Virus record (IMG/VR): IMGVR_UViG_2734482786_000005
Coordinates: 1 to 16,166 of that record
Direction: 5' to 3' (one strand)
Length of the DNA stretch: 16,166 nucleotides
Source: a virus
Taxonomy: Duplodnaviria > Heunggongvirae > Uroviricota > Caudoviricetes
Shown here: positions 1 through 15,755 of the stretch, piece after piece
Layout of the letters: every line of letters starts with the position of its first letter
How positions within the stretch are numbered: the stretch's first letter is position 1
Translations under genes and position numbers: made by a program
Notes under the pieces: generated by a model
Databases searched by the model: none
Seen by the model: only the letters and a program-made list of their open reading frames with translations
Told to the model about the DNA's origin: nothing

Positions 1-1254
1 ATGCTGGAACAAATGGGCATTGCCGCGAAGCAAGCCTCGTATAAATTAGCGCAACTCTCCAGCCGCGAAAAAAATCGCGTGCTGGAAAAAATCGCCGGTG
101 AACTGGAAGCACAAAGCGAAATCATCCTCAACGCTAACGCCCAGGATGTTGCTGACGCGCGAGCCAATGGCCTTAGCGAAGCGATGCTTGACCGTCTGGC
201 ACTGACGCCCGCACGGCTGAAAGGCATTGCCGACGATGTACGTCAGGTGTGCAACCTCGCCGATCCGGTGGGGCAGGTAATCGATGGCGGCGTACTGGAC
301 AGCGGCCTGCGTCTTGAGCGTCGTCGCGTACCGCTGGGGGTTATTGGCGTGATTTATGAAGCGCGCCCGAACGTGACGGTTGATGTCGCTTCGCTGTGCC
401 TGAAAACCGGTAATGCGGTGATCCTGCGCGGTGGCAAAGAAACGTGTCGCACTAACGCTGCAACGGTGGCGGTGATTCAGGACGCCCTGAAATCCTGCGG
501 CTTACCGGCGGGTGCCGTGCAGGCGATTGATAATCCTGACCGTGCGCTGGTCAGTGAAATGCTGCGTATGGATAAATACATCGACATGCTGATCCCGCGT
601 GGTGGCGCTGGTTTGCATAAACTGTGCCGCGAACAGTCGACGATCCCGGTGATCACAGGTGGTATAGGCGTATGCCATATTTATGTTGATGAAAGTGTAG
701 AGATTGCTGAAGCATTAAAAGTGATCGTCAACGCGAAAACTCAGCGTCCGAGCACATGTAATACGGTAGAAACGTTGCTGGTGAATAAAAACATCGCCGA
801 TAGCTTCCTGCCCGCATTAAGCAAACAAATGGAGGAAAGCGGCGTGGCATTACACGCAGATGCAGCTGCGCTGGCGCAGTTGCAGACAGGCCCCGCGAAG
901 GTGGTGGCTGTTAAAGCGGAAGAGTATGACGATGAGTTTCTGTCATTAGATTTGAACGTCAAAATCGTCAGTGATCTTGACGATGCCATCGCCCATATTC
1001 GTGAACACGGCACACAACACTCCGATGCGATCCTGACCCGCGATATGCGCAACGCCCAGCGTTTTGTTAACGAAGTGGATTCGTCCGCTGTTTACGTTAA
1101 CGCCTCTACGCGTTTTACCGACGGCGGCCAGTTTGGACTGGGTGCGGAAGTGGCGGTAAGCACACAAAAACTCCACGCGCGTGGCCCAATGGGGCTGGAA
1201 GCACTGACCACTTACAAGTGGATCGGCATTGGTGATTACACCATTCGTGCGTAA
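1..1254 (+). CDS. proA: gamma-glutamyl phosphate reductase (glutamate-5-semialdehyde dehydrogenase)
   Basis: 417-aa ORF starting at ATG at position 1, stop at 1252-1254. Translation matches enterobacterial ProA as I recall it (aldehyde dehydrogenase fold). Roughly 50% G+C, typical core-genome composition. Confidence 0.93.
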
Positions 1255-1368
1255 ATAAAACCGGGTGATGCAAAAGTAGCCATTTGATTCACAAGGCCAT
1301 TGACGCATCGCCCGGTTAGTTTTAACCTTGTCCACCGTGATTCACGTTCGTGAACATGTCCTTTCAGG

Positions 1369-1444
1369 GCCGATATAGCTCAGTTGGTAGAGCAGCGCAT
1401 TCGTAATGCGAAGGTCGTAGGTTCGACTCCTATTATCGGCACCA
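1369..1444 (+). tRNA. thrW: tRNA-Thr, anticodon CGT (thrW-type)
   Basis: 76-nt sequence GCCGATATAGCTCAGTTGGTAGAGCAGCGCATTCGTAATGCG...GGTTCGACTCCTATTATCGGCACCA with the usual D-loop and T-loop motifs (GGTTCGA), a CGT anticodon in the loop, and a 3' CCA. Lies directly downstream of proA, as at the enterobacterial thrW locus. Confidence 0.93.
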
Positions 1445-1446
1445 TT
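1428..1446 (+). repeat. attL core (3' end of tRNA-Thr)
   Basis: TCCTATTATCGGCACCATT at the tRNA 3' end is repeated as TCCTATTATC-GCACCATT at 15615-15632. Confidence 0.75.
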
Positions 1447-1461
1447 CTAACGTTTCCCCAA

Positions 1462-1546
1462 GTCTACTAAAGTTCACTGAAACCCCTTATACTCTGCGCT
1501 TTACAGCCCCTTTTAGTATTTCTACGTCTACTAAAGTTCCCTGAAA
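1462..1546 (+). repeat. Two 21-bp direct repeats between tRNA and int (putative arm-type recombinase or accessory-factor sites)
   Basis: GTCTACTAAAGTTCACTGAAA at 1462-1482 and GTCTACTAAAGTTCCCTGAAA at 1526-1546, one mismatch, 64 bp apart. Confidence 0.5.
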
Positions 1547-1557
1547 TCTACGGTCGT

Positions 1558-1609
1558 TTGGGGGTACTTATGGGGGTATTTGTTGTTCGGTCTATAGGAG
1601 GTACCCCCA
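1558..1609. promoter_or_regulatory. TGGGGGTA-type motif cluster upstream of int (putative integrase arm sites or int promoter control)
   Basis: TGGGGGTAC at 1559-1567, TGGGGGTAT at 1571-1579, and inverted GTACCCCCA at 1601-1609. The same tandem pair, TGGGGGTACTTTTGGGGGTAT, recurs at 15532-15555 near attR. Confidence 0.45.
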
Positions 1610-1610
1610 A

Positions 1611-2825
1611 GTGAAACTAAACGCCCGCCAGGTGGACACCGTCAAACCTAAAGATAAGCCTTACAAGCTGGCTGATGGTGGTGGTTTGTATCTCTTGATT
1701 AAACCTAATGGCGGCAAATACTGGCGGCTCAAGTATCGTGTAGCAGGCAAAGAGAAGCTGTTAGCGCTTGGCGTGTATCCTGAAGTCACATTGGCCGATG
1801 CTCGGGCAAAACGTGAAGAAGCCAAAAGGGGGATCGCTGGGGGTATCGATCCTATGGAAGCGAAACGGGAAGAAAAGATTGCCCGTGAAACTCAGTTAAA
1901 CAATACATTCAAAGATATTGCCCTTGAGTGGCACAGCAGCAAACTAAAAAAATGGTCTGCTGGGTATGCTTCAGACATCCTGGAGGCTTTCAACAAAGAT
2001 GTGTTCCCTTACATTGGCAAAAAACCAATAGCTGATATCAAACCGCTTGAACTGTTGAATGTGCTACGGCGCATTGAGGGGCGCGGCGCTACAGAAAAGG
2101 CCAAAAAGGTTAGGCAGCGCTGCGGGGAAGTTTTCCGTTACGCAATAGTCACCGGCCGTGCTGAGTATAACCCTGCTCCGGATCTCACCAGTGCGATGCA
2201 AGGGCATGACTCCAATCATTATCCTTTCCTCACACCAAAGGAATTGCCTGATTTCTTCAAGGCTTTGTCAGGATATACAGGAAGCGCGTTAGTAGTTTTA
2301 GCCGCTCGTCTGCTGATTATAACCGGCTTGCGTACCGGCGAACTCCGCGGGGCATTTTGGGATGAAATCAATATCAATAAGGCGGTCTGGGAAATACCAG
2401 CCTCACGCATGAAAATGCGTCGCCCTCATATAGTGCCATTGTCTGAGCAGGCTCTTTCGCTTATTGGGCAGATTAAAGAACTAACTGGCAATTATCCGCT
2501 TATGTTTCCTGGTCGTAATGATCCAAGAAAAACAATGAGTGAGGCCAGCATAAACCAAGTATTTAAGCGCATTGGTTATAACGGAAAGGTTACTGGCCAC
2601 GGTTTCCGACACACTATGAGCACCATTTTGCATGAGCAGGGCTATAACACTGCGTGGATAGAAACGCAGCTCGCGCACGTCGATAAAAACTCAATTCGTG
2701 GCACATACAACCATGCGCAATATCTGGATGGGCGGCGGGAAATGCTTCAGTGGTACGCTGATTATATGGATTCGCTCGAGCATGGCGGAAATGTGGTGCA
2801 TTGTGAGTTCGGAAAATGCGGGTGA
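1611..2825 (+). CDS. int: tyrosine site-specific integrase (P4-like, tRNA-targeting)
   Basis: 404-aa ORF with GTG start and AGGAGG 9 nt upstream. N-terminal arm-binding type region (KLADGGGLYLLIKPNGGKYWRLKYR) and C-terminal catalytic motifs (LRTGELRG, HGFRHT, a Tyr near the C-terminus). Sits immediately 3' of the tRNA. Confidence 0.9.
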   Translation: MKLNARQVDTVKPKDKPYKLADGGGLYLLIKPNGGKYWRLKYRVAGKEKLLALGVYPEVTLADARAKREEAKRGIAGGIDPMEAKREEKIARETQLNNTFKDIALEWHSSKLKKWSAGYASDILEAFNKDVFPYIGKKPIADIKPLELLNVLRRIEGRGATEKAKKVRQRCGEVFRYAIVTGRAEYNPAPDLTSAMQGHDSNHYPFLTPKELPDFFKALSGYTGSALVVLAARLLIITGLRTGELRGAFWDEININKAVWEIPASRMKMRRPHIVPLSEQALSLIGQIKELTGNYPLMFPGRNDPRKTMSEASINQVFKRIGYNGKVTGHGFRHTMSTILHEQGYNTAWIETQLAHVDKNSIRGTYNHAQYLDGRREMLQWYADYMDSLEHGGNVVHCEFGKCG

Positions 2826-2952
2826 CTGGTTGAGTATACAGTAGTAGACTTTGAGCGATTAAGAAAAGGCTGTGTCTAGGGTCGCTCCCGAAAATCCGTA
2901 CACCTCGGCGGACTGGCACAGCCACTACGGTAGAGGGCGCAGAGGTGTGCGT

Positions 2953-3723
2953 ATGGTTGATATTCATGCCGAATTAAATGAATACAAAAAAGAGTTTATT
3001 TATTTACGTGATTTTCTTGATGATGTATTTAAAGTTGTTGATGCTAATATTTCAGAAGTCATTACCTGGATACTCAAGAGAATAAATACAGTAAATCCAG
3101 GCATTACCCTGTACACAGTAAATTCATTAAATGAGGTGGAGCTTTATTCTTCGGATCCGTTTGAGTGGAGATCTGATTTTAACTTTCTTTATGCAAAACT
3201 GGATACGGTTAGGGAGCGTGGTTGTTTACCTTGTGAGAGGGATGAGAGTGGTTTTCTGGTATCTGGTTATTGGGAAGATGCCGAATTTGAGGCAATGGGA
3301 TTCAGAAGAAATGAAATTTTCGAAATTTTCCCAGAAATCCTTGACGGGTTAATGAATCTGGAATGTGCTGACTCTTCTGAAAATAACGAGGCGCAAGGAA
3401 GCAATATTGAACATAAAGAGTTGCGTACAGATGATGATTTTTTATCCCGAATTGCAATGCTGGAAAAAGAAAATGAATCGTTAAGGGCGCGGGTAAATCA
3501 GTTAGAAAAGGAGCGCCCGATTTTGCTAAAGGCGTATCGTGATGATGACCCATTGTATCTGGCTATCGATATTAGAAACAGAGAGTGGGCCAATTACGAC
3601 CCAGAGAATGATCGCGCAACTAGGGGAAACCAGGGCGCGATTACTACTGAGCTTGAAAAACGAGGTTTTACCTCCCGACAGGCCGCATCTATTGAGCTTG
3701 TCGCCTGTCCTATCAAACGATGA
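2953..3723 (+). CDS. hypothetical protein (AT-rich accessory gene between int and alpA; predicted coiled-coil segment)
   Basis: ORF track gives 2872-3723. I prefer ATG at 2953 (MVDIHAELNEY...) because GAGGTG lies about 7 nt upstream. Sampled lines are clearly AT-rich. Contains an LEKENESLRARVNQLEKE heptad-like stretch. No family recognised. Confidence 0.55.
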   Translation: MVDIHAELNEYKKEFIYLRDFLDDVFKVVDANISEVITWILKRINTVNPGITLYTVNSLNEVELYSSDPFEWRSDFNFLYAKLDTVRERGCLPCERDESGFLVSGYWEDAEFEAMGFRRNEIFEIFPEILDGLMNLECADSSENNEAQGSNIEHKELRTDDDFLSRIAMLEKENESLRARVNQLEKERPILLKAYRDDDPLYLAIDIRNREWANYDPENDRATRGNQGAITTELEKRGFTSRQAASIELVACPIKR

Positions 3724-3763
3724 AGCCTTACCCTAGTGGTATCTCATGTTTTGTTCGCGTCTC

Positions 3764-3840
3764 ACCCTAAGGGTAATCAGACCTCACCCTTAGGGTATTT
3801 TTGTATGCTTTCCCATCAATTTTACTATTACCCTTAGGGT
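3764..3840. promoter_or_regulatory. Three copies of palindromic ACCCTWAGGGT upstream of alpA (putative operator array)
   Basis: ACCCTAAGGGT at 3764-3774, ACCCTTAGGGT at 3786-3796 and 3830-3840, centre-to-centre spacing 22 and 44 bp. A degenerate half-site (TACCCTAGTGGTA) lies at 3729-3741. Confidence 0.5.
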
Positions 3841-3943
3841 AAAAATATTCCCGATTACCATTAGACCTGAGAGCATTAAAATATTCGTTATTTCTGTGCC
3901 ATGATTACCTCGTCAAATTGAGTAGACGTTATGAGGTAAATAT

Positions 3944-4141
3944 ATGTCAAATACGCTTATTCGTTTAACGGAAGTTCAGCGTAGAACTGGATATAGCAAG
4001 GCATGGATTTATCGCCTTATGGGGCAAGGTAAATTTCCTGCATCAGTTAAAATTGGCTCGCGAGCGATTGCTTTCGTTGAGAGTGAAATTGACGAGTGGA
4101 TTAATCAGCGTATTGCGGAATCACGCGGAACAGCTACCTGA
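3944..4141 (+). CDS. alpA: AlpA-family phage/island transcriptional regulator (excision activator type)
   Basis: 65-aa ORF with GAGGTAAAT RBS. The sequence ...RLTEVQRRTGYSKAWIYRLMGQGKFP...VESEIDEWINQR matches the AlpA-family HTH pattern as I recall it (CP4-57 AlpA-like). Confidence 0.85.
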   Translation: MSNTLIRLTEVQRRTGYSKAWIYRLMGQGKFPASVKIGSRAIAFVESEIDEWINQRIAESRGTAT

Positions 4142-4219
4142 TTAAATGGCTACGGGGCCAGAAGTCCCAGCTATCCACCAGCAAATAAAAAGTAACTTAA
4201 TTCGATAGCAGGAGTTTTT

Positions 4220-5020
4220 ATGAAACTGCGAAAAACGCCCGTACAGGGGCAGGGCTTCGTTCGGCCTGAAAACCAGAGCCAACAAAATTTCTGCGAAATT
4301 ATCCCAGTTAGTTCCGGCGTTATTGGCGGGCGTGAAACCAATATTGTTAGCGCCAGAGCGTTGCATAAGGTGCTGGGTGTGAAGCGTGATTTCACAACTT
4401 GGATTAAAGGACGCATTGATGAGTACGGATTTAAAAAGGGCGTGGATTTTGAATTCGTAGAAAATTTGACCTCCCCCAATCCGGTGAGCGCAAAATCTCG
4501 CCAACGTGTAGAGCACGACTACCTGAGCACTATCAACATGGCGAAAGAACTGGCGATGGTCGAGCGCACCGAACAGGGGCGCGCCGTTCGTCAGTACTTT
4601 ATCAAATGCGAGGAGGAGCTACACAAGGTAGCGCCAGTGCGGTCCGCAGTGTTACGCCGGGAACTGAAAGCCCGTATCACAGTTGCCAGCTACTTTAAGC
4701 CAATGTGTGCCGCGCTGGAGGCGTACCGGGCTGAGCTGGGTAAAAACACTCTACAGCACCACTACACCACGGAAGCCAATATGCTGGCGCGTATCGTGCT
4801 GGGTGGCATGACTGCAAAACAGTGGGCGCAGGCGAACGGCATCACAGGCGAACCACGCGACCACATGAGCACGTTGCAGCTTGAGCATCTTTCTTACCTT
4901 GAGCAGAGCAATATCACGCTGATTGAGTTAGGCCAGGACTACCACCAGCGGAAAGCTGAATTAATTCGTCTTTCGCAGCGTTGGTTAGCCCGTCGCATGG
5001 AGGAAAACAGCCATGTGTAA
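4220..5020 (+). CDS. phage-associated protein, tentatively AntA/AntB-type (antirepressor-like) N-terminal domain
   Basis: 266-aa ORF with AGGAG 6-7 nt upstream of the ATG. The stretch SARALHKVLGVKRDFTTWIKGRIDEYGFKKGVDFEF resembles the AntA-type signature as I remember it. The assignment is tentative. Confidence 0.5.
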   Translation: MKLRKTPVQGQGFVRPENQSQQNFCEIIPVSSGVIGGRETNIVSARALHKVLGVKRDFTTWIKGRIDEYGFKKGVDFEFVENLTSPNPVSAKSRQRVEHDYLSTINMAKELAMVERTEQGRAVRQYFIKCEEELHKVAPVRSAVLRRELKARITVASYFKPMCAALEAYRAELGKNTLQHHYTTEANMLARIVLGGMTAKQWAQANGITGEPRDHMSTLQLEHLSYLEQSNITLIELGQDYHQRKAELIRLSQRWLARRMEENSHV

Positions 5021-5479
5021 CGCTCTGACCGTTACAAAAAGAAAAAGCGCCCCGTTGCCGGAGCGCCTTTGTGAACAAGTCGCTTACTGCGCCATATTGC
5101 TTACTGTCTACGAGGCAGATTATAGCGTTGTGGTCGTACAGAGTGAAGGCGCTGATCACTGTTATCACAGTAAGCCAGAAATGCAGAATATTTCGCTGCA
5201 AAATGCCGTTGGCCAAGCTGTCTGGAAAGCAAAAAATACTGCTGGTGGCGCGACTGATGCAATTTTTTCTGGTTGCCAGGTGCTGATCAATCTGATGTCT
5301 GATTTCGTTCTGGATAAAACAAAGGCGACCGCAGAGGGCCGCCAGTGGGAAAGCTACATACTTGAACGCACCACCAACAATGCCACATTTGCGGCTGGTG
5401 GGCAATGTGTCAGCTTTGCACCAATGACTCTAGATTTAACTGAGGGGCATTATGGTGAATATGCTGGCTTGCTGGTGGG

Positions 5480-5680
5480 CTATTCCTGCTCTTTAACATC
5501 GCCATGCCGCGATGTTTTCCAGGTATGTGGCCCTAATTTTGTGCGCCTGTACTCTTTCAGGAACGTCTCAAGGACAAACGCACACGGCGCGAATCTGTCT
5601 GATTCATGCTCGCGCGTCATATTTTTGCGACGTCTCTTCCGGGTTGGTGATGGTATTTTTGTTAACTTTTTATTGTTCAT
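5480..5680 (-). CDS. small basic hypothetical protein (66 aa)
   Basis: Minus-strand ORF. I prefer the internal ATG at 5678-5680 (MNNKKLTKIPSPTRKRRRKN...) because GGAGG lies 7 nt upstream. Lys/Arg-rich N-terminus. Lies downstream of, and co-oriented with, the RHH gene. Confidence 0.35.
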   Translation of the reverse strand: MNNKKLTKIPSPTRKRRRKNMTREHESDRFAPCAFVLETFLKEYRRTKLGPHTWKTSRHGDVKEQE

Positions 5681-5737
5681 AATGGCCTCCTGCATAGCAA
5701 TGCGCCGTAGTTCCTCACACCACGGCACTGATAGTTT

Positions 5738-5917
5738 TTATCCTTTAGATTCTATGCCGCGTTGCTGTAATTCTTTGCGGATTATTCGCTTTATCCAGGC
5801 TGCAAGAGAATCATCGCCGTCCTGTTGTTGTGCTTTTTCCATCTTTTCCCGTAAGTCAGGATCTAAACGGAACTGGAACGGAGGATTACCACGCCTTTCG
5901 CTTTTGTGTGCTGACAC
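5738..5917 (-). CDS. putative ribbon-helix-helix (Arc/MetJ-like) DNA-binding protein, 59 aa
   Basis: Not in the ORF track (under 60 aa, GTG start). My manual reverse-complement translation is VSAHKSERRGNPPFQFRLDPDLREKMEKAQQQDGDDSLAAWIKRIIRKELQQRGIESKG. GAGGTG lies 8 nt upstream of the GTG. The beta-strand then two helices pattern is typical of RHH repressors. It is divergent from the replication operon. Confidence 0.5.
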   Translation of the reverse strand: MSAHKSERRGNPPFQFRLDPDLREKMEKAQQQDGDDSLAAWIKRIIRKELQQRGIESKG

Positions 5918-5944
5918 GTCAATTACACCTCATGTAATGTATTT

Positions 5945-5960
5945 ATGTGTAATTACACAT
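5945..5960. promoter_or_regulatory. Perfect 16-bp palindrome ATGTGTAATTACACAT in the divergent intergenic region (putative operator)
   Basis: Self-complementary 16-mer flanked by further TGTAAT/ATTACA half-sites (5921-5970). Lies between the minus-strand RHH gene and the plus-strand operon starting at 6056. Confidence 0.55.
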
Positions 5961-6055
5961 TACACACAATCAGAGCAAAAAGTAAAGCCCTGCAAGTGTC
6001 GGTACCACTGGCAGGGCCTCTAACCACCAACGATAGCAATATTATCGAGGTAGCT

Positions 6056-6592
6056 ATGAGAAATTATACCCCACACCCGCAAGGGCGGGACTCGCACAAC
6101 CTGAATAAACCCGATGTAAAAAACCTGTTGCTCGCCACTGCCAGCCAGGGCTATGATTTATACGCACCAGCAAAATCTGGTGCCGGGATTGGCGTCCTGG
6201 TATTTAACGAAGCGCACAACACGCGCCCTGCGTGTTTTTTTGTGCCGGATAGTCACACCTTATCAATGGTGGGCTGTATGGGGGCGGAGCAATCCGCGCC
6301 GGGTTCTTCGTTAACCGGTTACGCCAACCCCGTACAGTCCACCGCCAGCGAAATTGGCGTTTCCTGCGGTGGGTTTATTAACCCTAACGAAGAGGCTGCC
6401 AATATGGCTACAGTCCCTACCCTTGTACATTCTCACACTGTCTTTATCTGGCGCTTTATCATCTTTGGCGCGTCAGAATCCCAAATCATCCACGTCACCG
6501 CCTGGACGGAACGCGAAGCGCGTAACCATTGCCCGTCCTGTTGTGTCGCTGTATTCGCCGCCCGTATTCGTCAGGAGGTGCGCCATGATTAA
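6056..6592 (+). CDS. hypothetical protein (first gene of replication-module operon)
   Basis: ORF track gives 5945-6592. I prefer ATG at 6056 (MRNYTPHPQG...) because GAGGT lies about 5 nt upstream and the longer version would overlap the operator region. No family recognised. Confidence 0.5.
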   Translation: MRNYTPHPQGRDSHNLNKPDVKNLLLATASQGYDLYAPAKSGAGIGVLVFNEAHNTRPACFFVPDSHTLSMVGCMGAEQSAPGSSLTGYANPVQSTASEIGVSCGGFINPNEEAANMATVPTLVHSHTVFIWRFIIFGASESQIIHVTAWTEREARNHCPSCCVAVFAARIRQEVRHD

Positions 6593-6878
6593 TCTGTCAA
6601 TCTCTGACCTTAACCGCATTCAGTATGACGAGAAATTTACCGGGAGCGTAAAAGCATTGAGGAAGCAGGCTGGATGTGCACGACTTATTAAGCCGTTAAG
6701 GTGTCATCATGATGATGATCCGCACTTTACCGGACGTATGGTGAATCACTACAAAAAAGGCGTTGAGGTATCCTCTGAACAGCTACGAGCTGGTTGCTGT
6801 TTCGGCACACCACCGGAATTTAGCGAACTGCTGACCCGTTGCGATTACCGGATCATTCAGGGGGAAAGTCATGGGTAA
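6585..6878 (+). CDS. hypothetical protein (97 aa)
   Basis: Internal ATG of track ORF 6354-6878, with AGGAGG 6 nt upstream. The start overlaps the stop of the preceding gene, suggesting translational coupling. MINLSISDLNRIQYDEK... Confidence 0.5.
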   Translation: MINLSISDLNRIQYDEKFTGSVKALRKQAGCARLIKPLRCHHDDDPHFTGRMVNHYKKGVEVSSEQLRAGCCFGTPPEFSELLTRCDYRIIQGESHG

Positions 6879-7071
6879 TCAGCCAGCAACAATGACAATT
6901 ACCCTGAATGTGCCAGATGATTTCACCGGGCGCGTACTGGTTTACCTGGATAAAGGGAAAGTGAAATCACAATGCCGACTGCGAAATAATGAAATAGTAA
7001 GTACGGTAGAAGGCTTTTCTGAACTCTGTATTCGTGCAGGAATAAAACCGGAACTGCTGACAGGAAAATAA
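6871..7071 (+). CDS. hypothetical small protein (66 aa)
   Basis: ORF with a GGGGGAAAG purine-rich RBS. Overlaps the previous stop by 8 nt. Sits in the operon with the primase-like gene. Confidence 0.45.
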   Translation: MGNQPATMTITLNVPDDFTGRVLVYLDKGKVKSQCRLRNNEIVSTVEGFSELCIRAGIKPELLTGK

Positions 7072-7075
7072 AACC

Positions 7076-7366
7076 ATGAAAAAGAAAAATTCTGGCTTTA
7101 CTGCCAGCGGCCTCTCTCGGTCTGCAATTCGCTCTGGCGATATTTACCGCGACACCAGACGTGGGGGACGAGTGGTTATTCGTCACGTTACGCCAGGAAA
7201 TATCACCTACCGCCGTGAGGCTTACGAATATGACTGCGTAATGCCGCGCCGTCAGTTTGAGCGTGATTTTATTCTGGTGGAAAACAAAGAACAGGCAGTA
7301 GCGAGACGTGCAGCCTCGAGTATTAAAAAAATCCGGGCAATGTTGGTAGCTGGGGGTAAGAAGTGA
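7076..7366 (+). CDS. hypothetical protein (96 aa)
   Basis: ORF immediately upstream of the replication protein, with its stop overlapping that gene's GTG start. Basic protein. No family recognised. Confidence 0.5.
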   Translation: MKKKNSGFTASGLSRSAIRSGDIYRDTRRGGRVVIRHVTPGNITYRREAYEYDCVMPRRQFERDFILVENKEQAVARRAASSIKKIRAMLVAGGKK

Positions 7367-9495
7367 AAAACGCGCCGAATTTAAAATATCAGCCGAAGGA
7401 TAAATTCACTGAGGCAATCATTTTTGCCGGGATGGATGCTTACGCTCACGCTCAACACTGGATTGAAAGCGAAGGACGGAAATATGGCGATAGCGTGCCG
7501 CCTGTTTACCTGGGGCCAAAGCAACTGGCAGATCTGGCTAATATCCGCATTGTCGACGATGAACGTCGTTTTGCGCGCGTCTATCTCGCGGGGGAGATCG
7601 AACCAATCCAGATTAATGCTATCGCTGAAAGGCTGGCGCTGGCTGGCGTAAAGGATGCGAAATTATACAAAGGTATCCCTGACCAGGATCCGGAGAACTG
7701 GCGCGACTACCTGCAACGGATCCGTGAACAGGCAGAGCGCGGGGAAACCCTGACTGAAGGAATCGGAATAGCTGGTGGCTCACCCGGTAAAACAGGCCCC
7801 ATGAAACCGCATATTACCGAAAAAGACGGGGCGCTCTGGTATATCGAGCCAATCCCCAACACCAGGGCAGAGGAGATGAATTATAAAGAAACCTGGCTGA
7901 GTGACCGGATGCGCACGGCAGGTATTGGTAATGACGGAAGGGAGGCGTATCTGATTATTGAAATGATCCCGGAAGGGACACAAAAAATTATTTACGAAGC
8001 GATGCCGCGCAATGAAATCGGTATGCCCGCAGGATGGGCGCGATTACGTGGGCGGGGAGTTGCAATCACTACCAGCGCCCATTTATTGAACAAACTGGCG
8101 GAATACCTGCAACGTCATGGAGATCGCACGGTGTGGGAGGTCACATCAACAGCAGGTTGGCATTGTGGAGCCTATGTTATGCCTGATGGCGAGGTGATTG
8201 GTGTGCCTGATCGTCCCGTAGCATTCTGCGGCGGATCTGCCGCCATCAAAGGCTATATTGTCAGGGGCACGGTGCATGAATGGCGAAATAATGTTGCTTC
8301 TCTGATGCGTGGCAATCACTCAATGATGCTTGGGGTGCTGGTCGGGCTGGCAGCCCCGCTAAATTCCCTTGTGGGGGGTAGTTGTTTTGGTATTCATCTT
8401 TTCGCGCAGTCGTCAGCGGGGAAAACCACGACTGTGGAGGCCGCCACCAGCCTTTATGGCGACCCTGAAATGCTTAAACTCTCGTGGGATGCCACCCGGC
8501 ACGGGTTGACAGTGGAAGCCGCTGCACGTAATGACGGTTTTATCCCTATTGATGAAATTGGTCAGGGAGGAAGGGTTAATGACATTGCGCAATCCGCCTA
8601 CAGCCTGTTTAACGGTGTGGGCAGGATTCAGGGGCGCAAGGACGGCGGCAATCGTGCGGTAATGCGCTGGAAAATAGCGGCACTAAGCACCGGAGAAGAA
8701 GATTTTGAAACCTTCCTGTTAAAAGGGGGAATTGCCCCAAAGGCAGGGCAACTGGTGCGACTGCTAAGCATTCCCTTTACCGATACAACGGTGTTTAACG
8801 GTTATGACGATGGTGATCAACATGCCAGGGCCATAAAGCGACTTTCATCAAATTATTGTGGCGCTGCGGGACGTGAGTGGGTGCGCTGGTTATCCGCTCA
8901 CAAGGAGTTGGCTATCAACACCACTTCAGATAAAGAAAATGCCTGGCTGGGAAATCTGCCTGAAAATGCCTCGTCACAGGTAAGGCGAGTGGCATCGCGA
9001 TTCGCCATGCTGGATGCAGCCGGAGAGCTTGCTACCGCAATTACTGGCTGGACAGCTGAAGAATGCCGGGAAGCAACGCAACGGGCTTTTGATGACTGGC
9101 TACAGGATTTCGGGCTGGAAAACCGGGAAAAATATCAGGTCATCAGTCGCGCCCGTGACTTTATTCAGCGCCATGCCCTGAGTCGTTTTCAGCCTTATAC
9201 CTACGGGAAAAGCAATGGGGATATGGATAACCACTATGCATCCCGTATAAGCAATCTTGCAGGCTATCTTGTCAGCGGTAAGCGTGAGGATGGAAAACCC
9301 GAATATCACATTATCCCGTCAGTGTTTGATAGCGAAATTTTATGCGGTATATCCAGGAACTTTGGGTGTCAGGCGCTGGAAGAAGCCGGAATGCTGGTTT
9401 GTGCAGAACCTGGTCGCTGGACATCGAAAACAGTGAAGATTAACGGAACACAGCAGCGATTTATCGTGCTGATTGATCAGGCAGAAGACGAATAG
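7363..9495 (+). CDS. replication protein, primase/helicase-like with SF3-type P-loop NTPase domain (DUF927-like, P4 alpha / PICI Pri-Rep analogue)
   Basis: 710-aa ORF with GTG start at 7363 (the first ATG is further in at 7432). Walker A-like FAQSSAGKTT and a downstream acidic IPIDEIG (Walker B-like) motif. Size and position, immediately upstream of an iteron array, fit a replication initiator. Confidence 0.7.
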   Translation: MKNAPNLKYQPKDKFTEAIIFAGMDAYAHAQHWIESEGRKYGDSVPPVYLGPKQLADLANIRIVDDERRFARVYLAGEIEPIQINAIAERLALAGVKDAKLYKGIPDQDPENWRDYLQRIREQAERGETLTEGIGIAGGSPGKTGPMKPHITEKDGALWYIEPIPNTRAEEMNYKETWLSDRMRTAGIGNDGREAYLIIEMIPEGTQKIIYEAMPRNEIGMPAGWARLRGRGVAITTSAHLLNKLAEYLQRHGDRTVWEVTSTAGWHCGAYVMPDGEVIGVPDRPVAFCGGSAAIKGYIVRGTVHEWRNNVASLMRGNHSMMLGVLVGLAAPLNSLVGGSCFGIHLFAQSSAGKTTTVEAATSLYGDPEMLKLSWDATRHGLTVEAAARNDGFIPIDEIGQGGRVNDIAQSAYSLFNGVGRIQGRKDGGNRAVMRWKIAALSTGEEDFETFLLKGGIAPKAGQLVRLLSIPFTDTTVFNGYDDGDQHARAIKRLSSNYCGAAGREWVRWLSAHKELAINTTSDKENAWLGNLPENASSQVRRVASRFAMLDAAGELATAITGWTAEECREATQRAFDDWLQDFGLENREKYQVISRARDFIQRHALSRFQPYTYGKSNGDMDNHYASRISNLAGYLVSGKREDGKPEYHIIPSVFDSEILCGISRNFGCQALEEAGMLVCAEPGRWTSKTVKINGTQQRFIVLIDQAEDE

Positions 9496-9527
9496 CACAA
9501 CCTACGCTCGCAGAGGGTCAAAAATCG

Positions 9528-9801
9528 CGGGATATGCGGGATATCGGGATATGAAAAATATATTGCAGAAATATCAGTTATTTATGTGTTGTTGTCGTAT
9601 CCCGCTGTATCCCGCCGTATCCCGGTATTTAGGTTTACGAGTGGTTGTAAAACAAACAAAATAACCGTATCCCGGAATGTATCCCGCAATATCTTATTGA
9701 TGCATAAGCAAAAAAAAACTTACCGGGATATGGCGGGATATGAAAAATCACATAACACCATGAAATAAATAAGTTTTTTTGTTCATATCCCGATATCCCG
9801 G
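9528..9801. repeat. Iteron array (putative origin of replication): about 12 copies of CGGGATAT / ATATCCCG in both orientations, with A/T tracts
   Basis: Direct tandem CGGGATAT(G/C) at 9528-9553; GTATCCCG(C/G) three times at 9598-9624 on a roughly 10-bp period; further copies at 9668-9687, 9724-9742 and 9785-9801. Poly-A and poly-T runs at 9710-9718, 9774-9780 and 9805-9826. Track ORFs 9473-9664 and 9586-9768 lie on these repeats and are not believed. Confidence 0.65.
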
Positions 9802-9952
9802 TAAAAAATGTTTTTTTACGCCTTATAGAGTACAGAAAAAAGATTGTTCAAATTTTGTATTACGATTGACTACTGTCAGCCATCCCACCCGGAAAAGGCA
9901 TAAAAGCTGACAGGTAACTGACAATGAGACAGTTTTATTTTTACGTGCCGAT

Positions 9953-10510
9953 ATGACGGCAACAATAATGGGGCAGAGCATGACAAAACTGACCATTAAC
10001 AGAAAACCGAAAGGTATTTACGGCACGCCGCAGAAAACGACGCAGGCGGCACAGAAGCAGGATAAAACCACATCGGCACATAAAGTGATGCCCGGTAACC
10101 AGAAAGCGCAGCAGAAGCCCACAGGGGCGACACCGTGGCGGCATATGACCAAACGCCAGCGCAAAAACCGCAGGCGCGTTAACCGCCTCACTGAGTTGTG
10201 GCCTGACTTATTCTGCAGGGAAGCACCGAAGCCACTTAAGGTGGGGATATTCAATGACCTGGTGCAGGATATCGCCGTCAGGGAGCTGGCATTCGGTCCA
10301 GGGGCATTACGTGCGTCACTGGCATCTTATGCGCAGTCACCGCGCTATTACCGAGCCCTGGTTGCTGGTGGGGTGCGCTATGACCTGAAAGGCCAGCCGT
10401 GCGGCGAGGTGACACCACAGAAACAGAACGAGGCAGAAATGCGGCTGATGGCGCTGAATGAGAAGCGCAAACGTCAGCGCCGGGCAGCAAAGGAGAAAAC
10501 AGGCGCATGA
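9953..10510 (+). CDS. ProQ/FinO-domain RNA-binding protein
   Basis: 185-aa ORF. The segment LWPDLFCREAPKPLKVGIFNDLVQDIA...LRASLASYAQSPRYYRALVAGGVRYDLKGQPCGEV parallels the ProQ N-terminal FinO-like domain as I recall it (PLKIGIF..DLV...R.DL.G.PCGE). The start is uncertain among ATGs at 9953, 9968 and 9980. Confidence 0.7.
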   Translation: MTATIMGQSMTKLTINRKPKGIYGTPQKTTQAAQKQDKTTSAHKVMPGNQKAQQKPTGATPWRHMTKRQRKNRRRVNRLTELWPDLFCREAPKPLKVGIFNDLVQDIAVRELAFGPGALRASLASYAQSPRYYRALVAGGVRYDLKGQPCGEVTPQKQNEAEMRLMALNEKRKRQRRAAKEKTGA

Positions 10511-10794
10511 TTCACGACAGCAAAGCGGAAGCACTGGAAGCGCGTGGTCTGTACCGGAGAGCGGCGGAAAGATGGGCAGAAGTCATAATGCGAGTGGATG
10601 GTGATAAGGCTCGGGAGGAGGCGGCAAAACGTCGCGCGGAATGTATCCGCAAGGCAGCCCGCCCACCAGCAAAGCTGGATAATTTCGAAGAGATGCGCGA
10701 AACCATCAGCCAGGCACATGCTGGTATGGGATTACATCAGCCCAATGGTAAGGCATTCAGGAAATACCCCGGGGCAAAAAATTACAATCCATGA
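10507..10794 (+). CDS. PerC-family transcriptional regulator-like protein
   Basis: 95-aa ORF whose start overlaps the previous stop (ATGA). The N-terminus MIHDSKAEALEARGLYRRAAERWAEV matches my recollection of PerC/Pch-family proteins. Confidence 0.65.
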   Translation: MIHDSKAEALEARGLYRRAAERWAEVIMRVDGDKAREEAAKRRAECIRKAARPPAKLDNFEEMRETISQAHAGMGLHQPNGKAFRKYPGAKNYNP

Positions 10795-10798
10795 GAGA

Positions 10799-10826
10799 GG
10801 CCGGGATTTTACCCGGCTTTTTTGTG
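10799..10826 (+). terminator. Rho-independent terminator-like hairpin after the PerC-like gene
   Basis: GGCCGGGATTTTACCCGGC stem-loop followed by TTTTTTG, immediately 3' of the stop at 10794. Confidence 0.6.
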
Positions 10827-10995
10827 TCAGCAAAAAAGCCCACAGACAGCAGTGTTGCGGGGGGGGGTTTCAGGTGGTTGAAGTCATTGGGAAGAACGTG
10901 AACATTACGCGCAAATGTTTCACAAATTGCAATAAAATGGATTGTTATTTCAGTTTATGCAATCATGAGCATTGCTTTGATCAGGAGAGATGATT

Positions 10996-11163
10996 ATGAG
11001 AAAAGCCAGCGTAAAACCCGTTTTACTCGCTCGTGAGCAGATTGAAGCATTACAGCGCATCCAGGACGAAGAGCGTCAAAAATCTGTGCTTGGTGTGGCC
11101 CCGTCGATTCATGTTATTGCCAGGCAACTGATGGACAAGGCACTTAAAGAGGTGAAACTGTGA
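10996..11163 (+). CDS. small hypothetical protein (55 aa)
   Basis: Not in the ORF track (under 60 aa). AGGAG at 10984-10988, 7 nt before ATG 10996. My translation is MRKASVKPVLLAREQIEALQRIQDEERQKSVLGVAPSIHVIARQLMDKALKEVKL. The stop overlaps the GTG start of the next ORF. Confidence 0.45.
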   Translation: MRKASVKPVLLAREQIEALQRIQDEERQKSVLGVAPSIHVIARQLMDKALKEVKL

Positions 11164-11432
11164 AATTAAATATCAGAGTGGATAAACGCCAGCTATGGCA
11201 GAAAAAAGAGAACAGTGAGGCATTCAGGGATTTGCTGGTGGAAAATCTTCAGCACCGTTTCAGTGGAGAGCTGCCAGACGCGCTGGGGAAAAAACTGGAA
11301 TCTCTGACGGTGGAAATTGGCGATTATGGTTTTGTTGATGTTGAAAGCACGACTGCCAACACAGAAATCGTAAAACAGGTCGTCAACGATGTAATGAAAA
11401 CCACGCTTAGCCAGCCATCCTGGCGTAACTGA
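11160..11432 (+). CDS. hypothetical protein (90 aa)
   Basis: GTG start overlapping the previous stop (GTGA), suggesting coupling. Acidic protein. No family recognised. Confidence 0.45.
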   Translation: MKLNIRVDKRQLWQKKENSEAFRDLLVENLQHRFSGELPDALGKKLESLTVEIGDYGFVDVESTTANTEIVKQVVNDVMKTTLSQPSWRN

Positions 11433-11531
11433 ATCCGCAAGGGGCGGTGATTGCCCCTCTCCGCCATACCCACAACGAATTCCTTTTTCGCATGAAGTGA
11501 ATGTTTATCGTATATGCATGAGGTGAGCCAC

Positions 11532-12056
11532 ATGTTGATGAGTAAAGCCGAATACGCCAAATACAAAGGTGTAAGCCGCCAGACAGTTTACGACTGGATC
11601 GAGAAAGGCGAGGTGGTCATGTCGGGTAAAAAAATTGATATGGAGGCTACAGAGTGGCGAAACAGCCCATCATCACAGGGAAAAGACACTGTTTCTGAAA
11701 TGTGGCCTGAGAGAACGCTGGAAATGACGTGGGGCGAGTTCTGGAAAGCTGTCAGGGACAGAGACGGTAAAATTCCTGCGCCAGTAACGGACGATGACAT
11801 AAAGCAGCGTGTGCAGGATGCAGCCGGGGAATTAGGCTGGGAAGCACACTTTCTTGATGATGGTGCTATCTGCCTTGAGGATGATGAAGGACAGCATTAC
11901 TTTGAACAATACAATTTGCGGGGTAATGCCAGGCTGGCAATTCGTATGCTGCGCTGTGAACTCTGCTATGTTGCAGGTGATTATCCTGATGAACTTGAAT
12001 CATGGAGCGAGGCAGGACTAAACGCCCTGGCTGAATGGGAGAAAACAGGTCATTAA
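11532..12056 (+). CDS. putative packaging-redirection protein with terminase small-subunit-like N-terminal HTH (Rpp-like), tentative
   Basis: Track ORF 11514-12056. I prefer ATG at 11532 because GAGGTG lies 6 nt upstream. N-terminal SKAEYAKYKGVSRQTVYDWIEKGEVV resembles the lambda Nu1 N-terminal DNA-binding segment as I recall it (KKQLADIFGASIRTIQNWQEQGMPV). About 175 aa, acidic C-terminus. Followed by a repeat array. Confidence 0.45.
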   Translation: MLMSKAEYAKYKGVSRQTVYDWIEKGEVVMSGKKIDMEATEWRNSPSSQGKDTVSEMWPERTLEMTWGEFWKAVRDRDGKIPAPVTDDDIKQRVQDAAGELGWEAHFLDDGAICLEDDEGQHYFEQYNLRGNARLAIRMLRCELCYVAGDYPDELESWSEAGLNALAEWEKTGH

Positions 12057-12063
12057 CGGCCGC

Positions 12064-12390
12064 AAAAAGTGTCAAGTTGAGCAGCTTGCAAGGTTGACAC
12101 TTTACACTCTGAACACGAAAAAGTGTCAACCTCGCTGTAAGCCCCGCCATTACTGGTCTTGCGCCATGTTTGCCACATCAAAAGGCCGAAAAAATCGCGA
12201 AAAGTGTCAAGTTGCCATGCTTAGAAATGCTAAGTTTTGTTAAGGTTTTTCGCGGAAAAGTGTCAACTCAACCTAACGGATCTTAACGCTCACGCACAAC
12301 AGCTGCAGCCAACGTGTAAAGGACTGATGCGAAGCAGGGCAGCTGTCAGCCTGTTATGGTTTGTTATGCCTTACCTGGGGAAAGTGTCAA
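12064..12390. repeat. Array of six AAAGTGTCAA motifs (five direct, one inverted), candidate packaging (cos/pac-type) or protein-binding site
   Basis: Copies at 12066-12075, 12120-12129, 12201-12210, 12257-12266 and 12381-12390 on the plus strand, and an inverted copy TTGACACTTT at 12094-12103. Most are preceded by CGCGAAA or CGCGGAA. A partial copy lies at 12437-12452. Confidence 0.6.
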
Positions 12391-12451
12391 CCGCTACCGT
12401 TTCAGAAAGCTTCAATTGCAGAGCGTTGGCAGCACCTGTCAAAACTTGTCA

Positions 12452-12480
12452 CCCGCCGGCACAGCCAGCGGGAATTTTTT
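12452..12480 (+). terminator. terminator-like GC hairpin plus T-run
   Basis: CCCGC...GCGGG stem followed by AATTTTTT at 12473-12480. Lies between the plus-strand backbone genes and the convergent minus-strand cargo operon. Confidence 0.4.
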
Positions 12481-12599
12481 GCTCTAAACGCTCTAAGTTA
12501 CAGTTGATGTGATCTGTAAACTGCGGTTGCAACTAGTAATCGTATAAAACCATCAGTTGCAGTTTTACCTAACTATAGTCACAATGATAGTTTATATAA

Positions 12600-14099
12600 T
12601 TATACATTGTATGCGAGGTAATCATATAATGCTAAAAGTTTCCGATAATCAGTATGAGATTTGTCCTTAAACTCCCGGACATGTTTTTCTAAATCTTCTA
12701 AGGGTATATGTTCATCATGAGCATTGAAGAAAATAATATTTTGTAATTTGCTATAACTATCAGAATGTTTAGCGTAAATATCTTCAATGGTATGTTCTAC
12801 TATTCTTTGATTCTTGGGTAACCTGGAATAGTTTAGATTTATTAATCTTTTTTGATTTTTCATTAATGATGTTAAGCATTTAACACCTGGGCTGAATTTA
12901 TGAAAAGCATAAGCTGGGAAATATGATCTTTTATTGATGGTGAACTTGTCAAGCAACTCGACAACATGTGATTCCTTATTTGAAATTAGATCAAAATAGT
13001 TTTCCATCATCTCCTGAGGTGTTTGCATGTATATTTTTATAGAGTTAACAGAACCGACGGCTAGAACAAGCTCATCATTTCTGAGTGTCTCCAAATCCCC
13101 AACAAGTTTTACTTTTATGTCTCCACCTTCCTTTATTTTACCAAAGATACTCTCTACTCTGCGTATATCCATTACCGAAACTGGTAAGTGGAGTTGAGCA
13201 AGTTCTTTATATATATCTGAGAAGTTATCTGTAACGATTTTATTAATGCTAATTAACCCTGCATCTTCTACTTCGAGATCGTGAGAGACAATGTTTAAAT
13301 TATCAATACCTTCTTCTCTTTCAATAAGAAGGAAGTTGTTTTTTATTTTTTCTGCAATTTTAGAACGAGGTGGTATGTATGAGAATATTGTTTTTAATAC
13401 TTTTTTTATATTCGGATCACCTATTCTATATCCCATAAATATAATCGGATTATGTATAAACAAGGATAGGAGTTGAGCACGAATTAATTCATATTTTTTA
13501 TCAAAATGAATATAGTCATCACTGGTTATTATTATGGATTCTGGTTTGCTAACGCATCCGTGAATTTTATAAACAGAACCATAAGGATTGCTTAAAAGTA
13601 TATCATTTCCAATAACAGGATTATAACCAATTGCACTTTCGATAAAATTATCATAGTTTGTCGTAATCACAGAGGCAATGTTTTTTGAGGCCTTTACTAA
13701 TTCAGATATTTCATCTTGAACTCCTAATTTTAAATCTGTGATATTAACCACCTGTGAAAGATAGATTTTAAATCTGCTGATATTTGAGGATATATCTTCT
13801 GACTCGTAGTATAAGTCATTGATATATTTGAACTTTCCGTTCCTGTCTGCTTTTAGTGTTGCATCAAAAATTTGCTCTAATTGCGTTGCTACTTTTGGAA
13901 GGTCTACAATACCATCTTTATTGCTGTTTTCTCTGACAAGATCTTTATAGAGTTCATTAGAATTTGTCAGGTCAATACTAATTTTCTCTAAGAGTGCCGG
14001 CCAGCTATAAGAAATTGATAAGTATCTCATGCTGAAACCTGCTCCAACAAATAATATTGGGTGGTTTCTGTAGCCTTTTAGAAAATCCGTTATATTCAT
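12600..14099 (-). CDS. SIR2-like domain protein (putative NAD+-consuming defence effector) with uncharacterised roughly 200-aa C-terminal region
   Basis: 499-aa minus-strand ORF with GGAGG 5 nt upstream of the ATG at 14097-14099. Motifs checked codon by codon: ILFVGAGFS (aa 15-23, DNA about 14031-14057), TTNYD (aa 146-150, DNA 13650-13664), KIHG with His180 (DNA 13557-13565). AT-rich: sampled lines are about 27-35% G+C. Confidence 0.75.
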   Translation of the reverse strand: MNITDFLKGYRNHPILFVGAGFSMRYLSISYSWPALLEKISIDLTNSNELYKDLVRENSNKDGIVDLPKVATQLEQIFDATLKADRNGKFKYINDLYYESEDISSNISRFKIYLSQVVNITDLKLGVQDEISELVKASKNIASVITTNYDNFIESAIGYNPVIGNDILLSNPYGSVYKIHGCVSKPESIIITSDDYIHFDKKYELIRAQLLSLFIHNPIIFMGYRIGDPNIKKVLKTIFSYIPPRSKIAEKIKNNFLLIEREEGIDNLNIVSHDLEVEDAGLISINKIVTDNFSDIYKELAQLHLPVSVMDIRRVESIFGKIKEGGDIKVKLVGDLETLRNDELVLAVGSVNSIKIYMQTPQEMMENYFDLISNKESHVVELLDKFTINKRSYFPAYAFHKFSPGVKCLTSLMKNQKRLINLNYSRLPKNQRIVEHTIEDIYAKHSDSYSKLQNIIFFNAHDEHIPLEDLEKHVREFKDKSHTDYRKLLALYDYLAYNV

Positions 14100-14190
14100 T
14101 TGACCTCCGAGATATATTAGCGGTAATCATTAAAATTTGTAAGAACACAGCTCAAGTATGTATTTAGCTGTAGAGATAAGAATTTACTTG

Positions 14191-15318: not shown

Positions 15319-15531
15319 TTCGGTCTCCTTTCGAAGGGAGCTTAACTTTATCATAGGATGATCATAAAGGGAGCTGTACGGCAAACATCACTAAGGTTGG
15401 GCCTGAAACACAAATTCCCTAAGTGCAATTTTGACGTCTAACTTACTTGATGTGCTTCAAGGCGGTTCTTACATTGTGGTATCAACAACAATAGAATGTT
15501 TTTTAAACAATTTAGATAGCAACAAGCAAGT

Positions 15532-15555
15532 CTGGGGGTACTTTTGGGGGTATCT
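15532..15555. promoter_or_regulatory. TGGGGGTAC-TTT-TGGGGGTAT motif pair near attR (matches the motif pair near int)
   Basis: CTGGGGGTACTTTTGGGGGTATCT at 15532-15555 matches TGGGGGTACTTATGGGGGTAT at 1559-1579. Confidence 0.45.
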
Positions 15556-15614
15556 AATGATTGCGTAATAGTTTTTTTATATACATATCAATGTGTTGAT
15601 TTCTACAATTTGTT

Positions 15615-15632
15615 CCTATTATCGCACCATTT
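15615..15632 (+). repeat. attR core (degenerate copy of the tRNA-Thr 3' end)
   Basis: CCTATTATC-GCACCATT against tRNA CCTATTATCGGCACCATT. Identical apart from a missing G. Confidence 0.7.
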
Positions 15633-15755
15633 AAATCAAGTAGTTACCCCATATTTAAATACACCACGTTTCCTCCTGTGCCGTATTTGTGCCATTGTAA
15701 CCCTGGCAATTCATCAAAATACTGTTCTGACATCAGGCAATGCAGGTGCAGACAT

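Follow-up and report, generated by a model that had tools for sequence, protein, structure and literature searches.

A small ribbon-helix-helix gene and its candidate operator between the integration and replication genes of an Escherichia coli island

Do the phage-inducible chromosomal islands (PICIs) of Gram-negative bacteria, which have been described as AlpA-activated and for which the existence of a repressor is 'unclear' (PMC6092414), carry a repressor after all? This question is raised by one locus in a DNA stretch of 16,166 nucleotides (nt), called the window in the following (IMG/VR record IMGVR_UViG_2734482786_000005, positions 1 to 16,166), which comes from an island in the E. coli chromosome. 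At positions 5738-5960 a gene for a 59-amino-acid ribbon-helix-helix (RHH) protein of the Arc/Mnt type faces away from a rightward operon with replication genes, and a 16-bp palindrome lies between the two. A sequence-only reading of this DNA had proposed the pair as the repressor-operator switch of the island. We compared the locus with its relatives in other genomes, and the way in which the protein and the inverted repeats vary together gives good support to a cognate repressor-operator pair.

The small gene and its protein

The gene (5738-5917, minus strand) starts with GTG. A Shine-Dalgarno sequence, GAGGTG (5926-5931, minus strand), can be read in the sequence 8 nt before the start codon, and a purine-rich element is retained at this position in the homologous loci. 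The open reading frame (ORF) had earlier been reported as absent from the ORF track, which holds only for the track of that reading: the mechanical ORF list contains 5738-5917, and in the PGAP annotation of a 100% identical genome it is WP_072025262.1, a 'hypothetical protein'. A protein search found 111 homologues with 50-95% identity, from Escherichia to Xenorhabdus, Gilliamella, Frischella and Mannheimia, and the gene family is spread over the Enterobacterales, Orbales and Pasteurellales. Among 32 genes of class A (the class of the window protein, defined below) the residues R17, L22, R23, L38, R47 and L50 are invariant while each of them uses all six synonymous codons of arginine or leucine, which indicates that the protein is under purifying selection. 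In the same genes codons 2-5 (TCA ACA CAC AAA) show almost no synonymous variation, and this points to an overlapping constraint at the DNA level. The sequence-only reading had made its proposal depend on conservation of the small ORF; with this number of homologues and this turnover of synonymous codons, the comparison identifies the 59-codon ORF as a real gene under strong purifying selection.

The sequence-only reading had called the protein Arc-like, and three kinds of comparison agree with this. The window protein matches PHROG 228, 'Arc-like repressor', with an E-value of 2.1e-6. In hhalign comparisons its residues 8-50 were aligned with the RHH domain of P22 Mnt (Mnt residues 2-43, P 0.0011), and its strand and first helix with Arc (P 0.0026). 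The motif FQFRL of the window protein is thereby placed opposite FNFRM in Mnt and FNLRW in Arc, and the strand opposite Q9-N11-R13 of Arc and the equivalent residues of Mnt. R17 is invariant in 31 of 31 sequences, and the neighbouring strand residues set the classes described below. An AlphaFold2 model of the monomer has helices at residues 20-33 and 38-52 after an extended N-terminus, with a predicted local distance difference test score of 79. The Foldseek matches of this model are weak and mostly RHH domains, among them NikR, CopA, Arc, CopG, ParD, AmrZ and PutA. The PHROG and hhalign similarities to RHH repressors are weak individually and mutually consistent. The fold assignment is based on PHROG, hhalign and the weak Foldseek matches, from which we conclude that the predicted protein is an RHH protein of a divergent branch near DUF3950.

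With Pfam, a set of 31 homologues gave one match to RHH_7 (E 0.033), four to HicB and seven to DUF3950. The NCBIfam model YlcI/YnfO (NF041551) gives 20.1 bits (E 4.9e-4) for the window protein, which does not reach its cut-off of 30 bits, and it matches 23 of the 31 family members weakly (best E 1e-4). PGAP labels certain close homologues YlcI/YnfO, and some sources call homologues HicB-like. As our literature search for functional work on YlcI/YnfO found none, nothing about mechanism follows from the name. The helix B segment, which is encoded by the last 60 nt of the RHH gene, has 87% matches in or beside 'Icd-like' genes of many O157 genomes. These matches in O157:H7 and related genomes (H110-H123) are possibly remnants of truncated cassettes.

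Divergent promoters and inverted repeats that follow the protein

As the sequence-only reading had stated, the 16-mer ATGTGTAATTACACAT at 5945-5960 is perfectly self-complementary; both the sequence and a repeat finder show this, and it is the longest palindrome of the whole window. A palindrome of at least 16 bp is present somewhere in about 26% of first-order Markov random windows of 16 kb, so on its own it is weak evidence. The chance of such a palindrome within the 139-nt divergent intergenic region is 0.003. The TGTAAT half-sites that had been described around it are there as well: five of the 14 copies of TGTAAT/ATTACA in the window are crowded in 5922-5964, with ATTACA at 5922, 5952 and 5959 and TGTAAT at 5933 and 5948.

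Promoters were inferred from the consensus of 33 class A loci of many genera that align without gaps, TgTTGACAcgT.aAtTACac..g.tGTAaTGT.tTTaTGTGT.aTgACAcATTAC..acA[variable]AAAaa.CAAcgc, and from the promoter of locus L002, which has at the homologous place a consensus promoter with 12 of 12 matching positions (TTGACA-16-TATAAT). The rightward promoter, P_R, would have its -35 hexamer CTGACA at 5911-5916 (plus strand), overlapping the RHH start codon; nearly all relatives have TTGACA there. Its -10 region is TGTAATGT (5933-5940, plus strand), read either as TGTAAT with a 16-nt spacer or as TAATGT with an 18-nt spacer, and its start is predicted at about 5945-5947. The leftward promoter, P_L, would have the -10 hexamer TAATGT, the reverse complement of ACATTA, at 5957-5962 (minus strand) and the -35 hexamer TTACTT at 5980-5985 (minus strand; TTGCTT or TTGTTT in relatives), with a predicted start at about 5950. 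Its 17-nt spacer is fixed in length and free in sequence across the 33 loci and is followed by a conserved TTGnnn. The -10 hexamers of P_R and P_L are mutually inverted copies. Taken together, the sequences suggest two divergent, overlapping promoters, of which P_R would be of the sigma-70 type.

The predicted operator core ATGTGT-AATT-ACACAT (5945-5960) is placed between the two -10 hexamers and over both predicted starts. The palindrome had been described as lying between the Arc-like ORF and the rightward operon, and this can now be put more exactly: it covers the predicted starts of both divergent transcripts. What is conserved is an element of 6+4+6 nt, with arms ATGTGT-N4-ACACAT and a central 4 nt that vary (AATG, GATG, CATT and others). 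The perfect 16-bp symmetry is therefore incidental, and only a few islands share it with this one. A second, imperfect inverted repeat, TTGTGT-GCTG-ACACGT (TTGTGTGCTGACACGT, 5904-5919), has two mismatches to the main repeat, lies 41 bp from it centre-to-centre and covers the -35 hexamer of P_R and the RHH start codon. A further box, ATTACAC (5922-5928), is located inside the P_R spacer and makes ATTACA-N5-TGTAAT with the -10 box.

Each of 36 related loci has the element ATGTGT-N4-ACACAT exactly once, and its distance to the start codon is 28 nt in all of them. The distribution of the element follows the beta-strand of the protein. In a set of 73 species-level loci, which we also used for synteny, the strand falls into the classes NPPFQFRLD (class A), NKQIALRVE, NKQIAFRVE, DQYQIRLA, VVQLRLD and SQPFQLRLD, and the C-terminal helices are nearly identical across them. 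The ATGTGT and ACACAT arms occur only with NPPFQFRLD and in none of the loci of other classes, and every class has its own inverted repeats at an equal offset from the start codon.

A further comparison is with the island of E. coli F9792 (L090, 2190-2560), which encodes an identical AlpA protein and has flanks that are roughly 90% or more identical to the window. There, window positions 5736 to about 6012 are replaced by unalignable DNA. The stretch that is replaced comprises the RHH gene, the boxes, both predicted promoters and half of a terminator (see below), and in its place are an unrelated RHH gene of the YlcI/YnfO type and three 11-bp palindromes, two of which match the GTGTTCAACAC type exactly while the third is a variant of it. 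By its sequence, this swap is a mosaic pattern as in phage immunity regions. Tandem pairs of differing RHH modules are present in L002, L038/L043 and L063/L070.

In the synteny set, alpA is convergent with the RHH gene in 40 of the 73 loci, 36 loci have a primase gene on the divergent side, in 27 the divergent genes begin with an icd-like gene, and the arrangement is reversed in none. Of 5426 complete E. coli genomes, 245 have the class A RHH gene with its operator (at least 80% coverage), and RHH homologues are carried by 112 plasmids. In some loci the cassette precedes other cargo. One example is L037 (Citrobacter youngae, 1799-3174), where the RHH gene, operator and leader head orf153-ccdA-ccdB in Citrobacter/Klebsiella chromosomes; another is L004 (E. 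coli plasmid, 1497-3283), where the cassette precedes a hypothetical-WYL-DUF1819 locus of the BREX type. A tblastn search of a phage collection gave only four weak matches, none of them annotated P4. In CFT073, the model PICI EcCICFT073 was not located in two stretches of 46-50 kb, which held only an icd prophage and core genes.

Antisense RNA, immunity RNAs and the host island

Next to P_L lies a predicted leftward intrinsic terminator (5976-6017, minus strand), with a stem from 6017 to 5987 followed by TTTACTTTTT, identified with a repeat finder and by strand stability and the asymmetry of G.U pairs. The minus-strand RNA of the hairpin 5987-6017 is the more stable one in 66 of 77 loci, and the T-run follows it on the same strand. 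In an alignment of 41 sequences on the leftward strand, two hairpins with 19 pairs were found, of which 12 have compensatory changes. The alignment cells are paired in 97.7% of cases when read leftward vs 81.5% when read rightward, and G.U pairs fill 128 vs 2 cells. We favour a leftward terminator because of this G.U asymmetry and the T-run on the minus strand; for the same two reasons, a leader structure of the rightward mRNA was rejected as an explanation of the hairpin.

The hairpins would belong to a candidate antisense RNA of about 78 nt, running on the minus strand from about 6056 to 5978 (predicted ends), which covers the Shine-Dalgarno sequence GAGG (6047-6050) and the ATG (6056-6058) of the first rightward ORF. 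Its candidate promoter has a -10 hexamer TATAAT at 6063-6068 (minus strand), a TAnnnT motif within codons 5-7 of that ORF. TAnnnT is at a fixed offset in the ORF (+13, or +7 in the form with a short N-terminus) in 39 of 60 unique loci directly, and in nearly all 60 after upstream out-of-frame ATG calls were corrected by eye. The residue encoded there varies (H, S, G, Y, F, C, R), always with an NNT codon. In most relatives the loop of the 5' hairpin contains an anti-Shine-Dalgarno CCUC; in the window this CCUC immediately precedes the stem on its 5' side. The terminator of the candidate RNA abuts P_L. A permissive Rfam search found no minus-strand family for it, and on the plus strand only a non-significant match to the R1162 antisense RNA (21.8 bits vs 55). 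These features mark a conserved, structured and unannotated leftward RNA over the first ribosome-binding site, which we present as a candidate. There is also a small hairpin, CGATAGCAATATTATCG (6033-6049), immediately before the Shine-Dalgarno sequence of the first rightward ORF. At the equivalent place most relatives have CGTTA-N3-GAGG-TAACG, with the Shine-Dalgarno sequence in the loop and a stem that covaries (for example G-C to A-U).

Further downstream, 6151-6592 forms an RNA immunity module as in P1 immI and P4. It contains an isrK-like RNA of the P4 seqA / P1 a1b1 type (6164-6240, plus strand; Rfam RF01394, 80 bits, gathering score 50), a C4 / P4-CI type immunity RNA (6262-6349, plus strand; RF01695, 76.4 bits, gathering score 45) and an Icd-like coding sequence (6404-6592, plus strand). 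The isrK-like RNA ends in an intrinsic terminator (6218-6236) and has a possible promoter TTGCTC-18-TATGAT (6128-6157); the c4-a1b1 model gave 39.8 bits, below its threshold of 46.7. The C4 and isrK models are known to pick up relatives of P4 CI and seqA in Gram-negative PICIs (PMC10111431). Neither RNA was found in twenty other diverse RHH loci, and on these sequences the cassette of RHH gene, operator and antisense RNA is separate from the C4 module. An 'ash family' pseudogene called by PGAP (5945-6373) begins at an ATG inside the palindrome and overlaps the RNA genes; this call is probably spurious.

Small ORFs follow the Icd-like gene, and then genes for a DUF4222 protein (7076-7366, plus strand) and a DUF927 primase-helicase (7363-9495, plus strand). 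On the other side of the RHH gene, an accessory 66-codon ORF for a very basic protein (5480-5680, minus strand; phrog_21027, E 3.6e-32) lies downstream and would be on the same transcript, and a terminator-like site runs from 5343 to 5324. In the identical genome, PGAP has no annotation for this ORF. The island is integrated at tRNA-Thr(CGT) (1369-1444) beside proA, and its left part has genes for a tyrosine integrase (1611-2825), for AlpA (3944-4141) and for a protein of the AntA type (4220-5020). EcCIMP1, an experimentally verified PICI at the same proA/thrW attachment site (PMC11773190), has an integrase with 94% identity to that of the window. With an integrase by a tRNA attachment site, AlpA, a primase/helicase and unidirectional early genes, the element can be classed from its sequence as a Gram-negative PICI-type satellite.

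Three other features of the island were recorded. An int-alpA RNA motif (RF02996, 45.8 bits, 2869-2936) lies between the integrase gene and the next ORF and is also found in L016, L018 and L076. A SIR2/ThsA-like protein is encoded at 12600-15384 (minus strand) and matches the PADLOC candidate system PDC-S25 (E 1.9e-139); the adjoining 397-aa ORF has no PADLOC match, and the region is likely anti-phage cargo of the island. At 9953-10794 are genes that PGAP names, in the identical genome, as a ProQ/FinO-family protein and a PerC-family regulator. An RNA chaperone of the FinO type, encoded beside two antisense-RNA systems, might help these to act.

Proposed control and its alternatives

We infer how the boxes are bound, whether transcription is raised or lowered, where it starts and how repression would be lifted, as follows. 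P_R would read through the leader, the isrK-like RNA, the C4 RNA, the icd-like gene and the genes for the DUF4222 protein and the DUF927 primase-helicase, and P_L would read the RHH gene itself and the 66-codon ORF. RHH dimers would most likely bind the boxes cooperatively via their beta-ribbons. Occupied boxes would shut P_R, so that the early/replication operon of the satellite is silent or throttled, and at P_L they would limit the synthesis of the RHH protein itself. As a second negative layer, the anti-Shine-Dalgarno of the antisense RNA would pair with the ribosome-binding site of the first rightward ORF. We hold this combination of cooperative binding, shut-off of P_R, autoregulation of P_L and a block on first-ORF translation to be probable. 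AlpA-driven transcription that converges on the RHH gene may override the repression, and derepression triggered by a helper phage is speculation. Of the earlier proposal of 'the island's repressor-operator switch', the pairing is supported, since the operator tracks the beta-strand class and is swapped with the gene as one cassette. Its standing as 'the' switch is not, because the rightward transcript would also meet the candidate cis-antisense RNA, the isrK-like terminator and the C4 RNA before it reaches the icd-like and primase genes.

Several observations weigh against this account. About 30 of the 35 Foldseek matches are RHH domains, several with a root-mean-square deviation of 0.7-1.6 Å, yet every one of them has E>1, and the modelled monomer forms no strand. 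In the search with RHH hidden Markov models that the sequence-only reading had proposed as a check, the Pfam models missed the window protein: Pfam, RHH models included, gave it no family at E<=0.1. A profile search of PDB sequences with the RHH protein found no match. The central 4 nt of the operator are unconserved, so the perfect palindrome as such is not under selection. The promoter hexamers of the window are off consensus (CTGACA; TGTAAT without A at -11; TTACTT), and a consensus promoter scan of the window found no site because TGTAAT lacks the A at position 2. Linkage alone may account in part for the co-segregation of N-terminal codons with the adjoining intergenic DNA. Finally, EcCIMP1 was checked and is without the RHH module; as it is a functional PICI, the module is not required for the satellite lifestyle.

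This last point would also suit plasmid-style copy control as opposed to a master repressor of the lysogeny type: the RHH protein and the antisense RNA would act as dosage sensors that throttle the primase operon after excision, and induction would go via AlpA and the C4 RNA. A replication operon under an RHH repressor, with an antisense RNA over the ribosome-binding site of its first gene, has the two-part logic of CopG/RNAII, the cassette is also carried by the 112 plasmids, and the published activator of Gram-negative PICIs is AlpA, with no repressor found (PMC6092414). Indeed, as in plasmid pMV158/pLS1, where the 45-aa RHH protein CopG and RNAII regulate repB, there would be dual negative control of a replication operon, through an RHH repressor at a pseudo-symmetric promoter site and a countertranscript over the translation signals of the initiator, and CopG is among the Foldseek matches of the window protein. 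However, CopG is cotranscribed with repB and autoregulates a single promoter, whereas the RHH gene is divergent here; the hosts here are integrative satellites and large plasmids of Enterobacterales, and there is no detectable sequence homology. Moreover, the cassette also drives cargo other than replication genes, ccdAB in L037 and the WYL/BREX locus in L004, an integrated single-copy island leaves dosage sensing little to act on, and allele swaps like those of phage immunity suit a role in specificity or immunity. We regard copy control as unlikely, but as the least improbable of the alternatives.

It is improbable that the palindrome is a by-product of two symmetric -10 hexamers, or a stem-loop (6-bp stem, variable 4-nt loop) at the 5' end of the rightward transcript, with the protein acting elsewhere or only on its own promoter. 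The outer repeat GTAATGT...ACATTAC is simply the two -10 hexamers, but the inner arms ATGTGT/ACACAT are offset from them and unneeded for promoter function. Invariant arms with a variable centre are also compatible with an RNA hairpin, in which no compensatory change can be scored since the arms never vary; a 6-bp AU-rich stem would nevertheless be weak. Each of the other beta-strand classes has a different inverted repeat at an equal offset, and the cassette swap exchanges the protein and the repeats jointly; both points count against a by-product.

A type II toxin-antitoxin system, with the RHH protein as antitoxin of the 66-codon ORF and the palindrome only as its autoregulation site, is very improbable. 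A second small ORF closely downstream of a small RHH gene, a weak NCBIfam match to a VapB antitoxin (E 0.0099) and the HicB-like naming of some homologues would fit it, but no toxin family of Pfam, NCBIfam or PADLOC matches the 66-codon ORF, and most loci have a monocistronic RHH gene that is convergent with alpA. We rejected this explanation because only 3 of about 88 loci have the 66-codon ORF next to the RHH gene.

The repeats could also be bound by another factor, AlpA or a helper-phage protein, with the small protein incidental; AlpA activates downstream PICI genes (PMC6092414), and the AlpA of Pseudomonas loads at a promoter-proximal element (PMC7969949). AlpA identity among class A loci has a median of 41%, and identical operators are found with AlpA proteins down to 18% identity, whereas in a pair of a class A and a class B locus AlpA is 94.5% identical alongside differing operators. 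AlpA alleles are thus decoupled from the operator class, for which reason AlpA was rejected as ligand of the operator, and with the operator also retained in loci and plasmids without alpA, we consider a role of any such other factor to be highly unlikely.

The preferred account, an RHH repressor with its own operator and an antisense RNA, has known counterparts. In the immI region of P22, Mnt and Arc are RHH repressors, the promoters Pmnt and Pant are divergent, and the sar antisense RNA comes from within the first regulated gene. The window likewise has a small RHH gene divergent from the operon that it would control, a symmetric operator between overlapping back-to-back promoters and a candidate antisense RNA that starts in the first regulated gene and covers its ribosome-binding site; in addition, the beta-strand PFQFRL aligns with PHFNFRM of Mnt, with weak profile similarity. 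Unlike in P22, there is only one RHH gene and the homology is marginal, the candidate antisense terminator abuts the predicted promoter of the repressor, and the genes that would be controlled are icd-like and primase-helicase genes of a satellite rather than an antirepressor. P1 immI (c4-icd-ant) and P4 CI are matched by the C4 and isrK-like RNAs and the icd-like gene directly downstream, and the candidate cis-antisense RNA would share their logic, in which the blocked translation of a first small ORF silences distal genes. The divergent position between the integration and replication modules and the mosaic specificity alleles also resemble Stl of the Staphylococcus aureus pathogenicity islands and Rpr of Gram-positive PICIs. 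Stl and Rpr are larger proteins with a different type of DNA binding and are inactivated by helper proteins, in contrast to the 59-aa RHH protein here. True members of YlcI/YnfO (NF041551; Pfam: DUF3950) hold the equivalent divergent position in Nissle, F9792 and L002.

The kind of system is thus known already, from P22 Mnt/Arc-sar and pMV158 CopG-RNAII, whereas this RHH family and its satellite context are undescribed; a literature search for links between RHH proteins and Gram-negative PICIs found nothing relevant. We advance only tentatively, and would sooner doubt than assert, that the RHH gene, its operators and the cis-antisense RNA of about 78 nt are a portable immunity cassette of two layers, protein and RNA, and the missing repressor system in a large subset of Gram-negative PICIs. 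Its exchangeable alleles (class A, class B, YlcI/YnfO and others) would then set immunity groups of satellites, AlpA-driven transcription that converges on the RHH gene would override it, and on plasmids and chromosomal islets it would have been co-opted for BREX-associated and ccdAB cargo.

Gram-negative PICIs are widespread phage satellites with virulence and anti-phage genes, and the RHH-operator pair between their integration and replication modules is a concrete, testable candidate for the missing PICI repressor. As the genes in these 245 genomes and 112 plasmids are labelled only 'hypothetical' or 'YlcI/YnfO', a functional assignment would improve many annotations.

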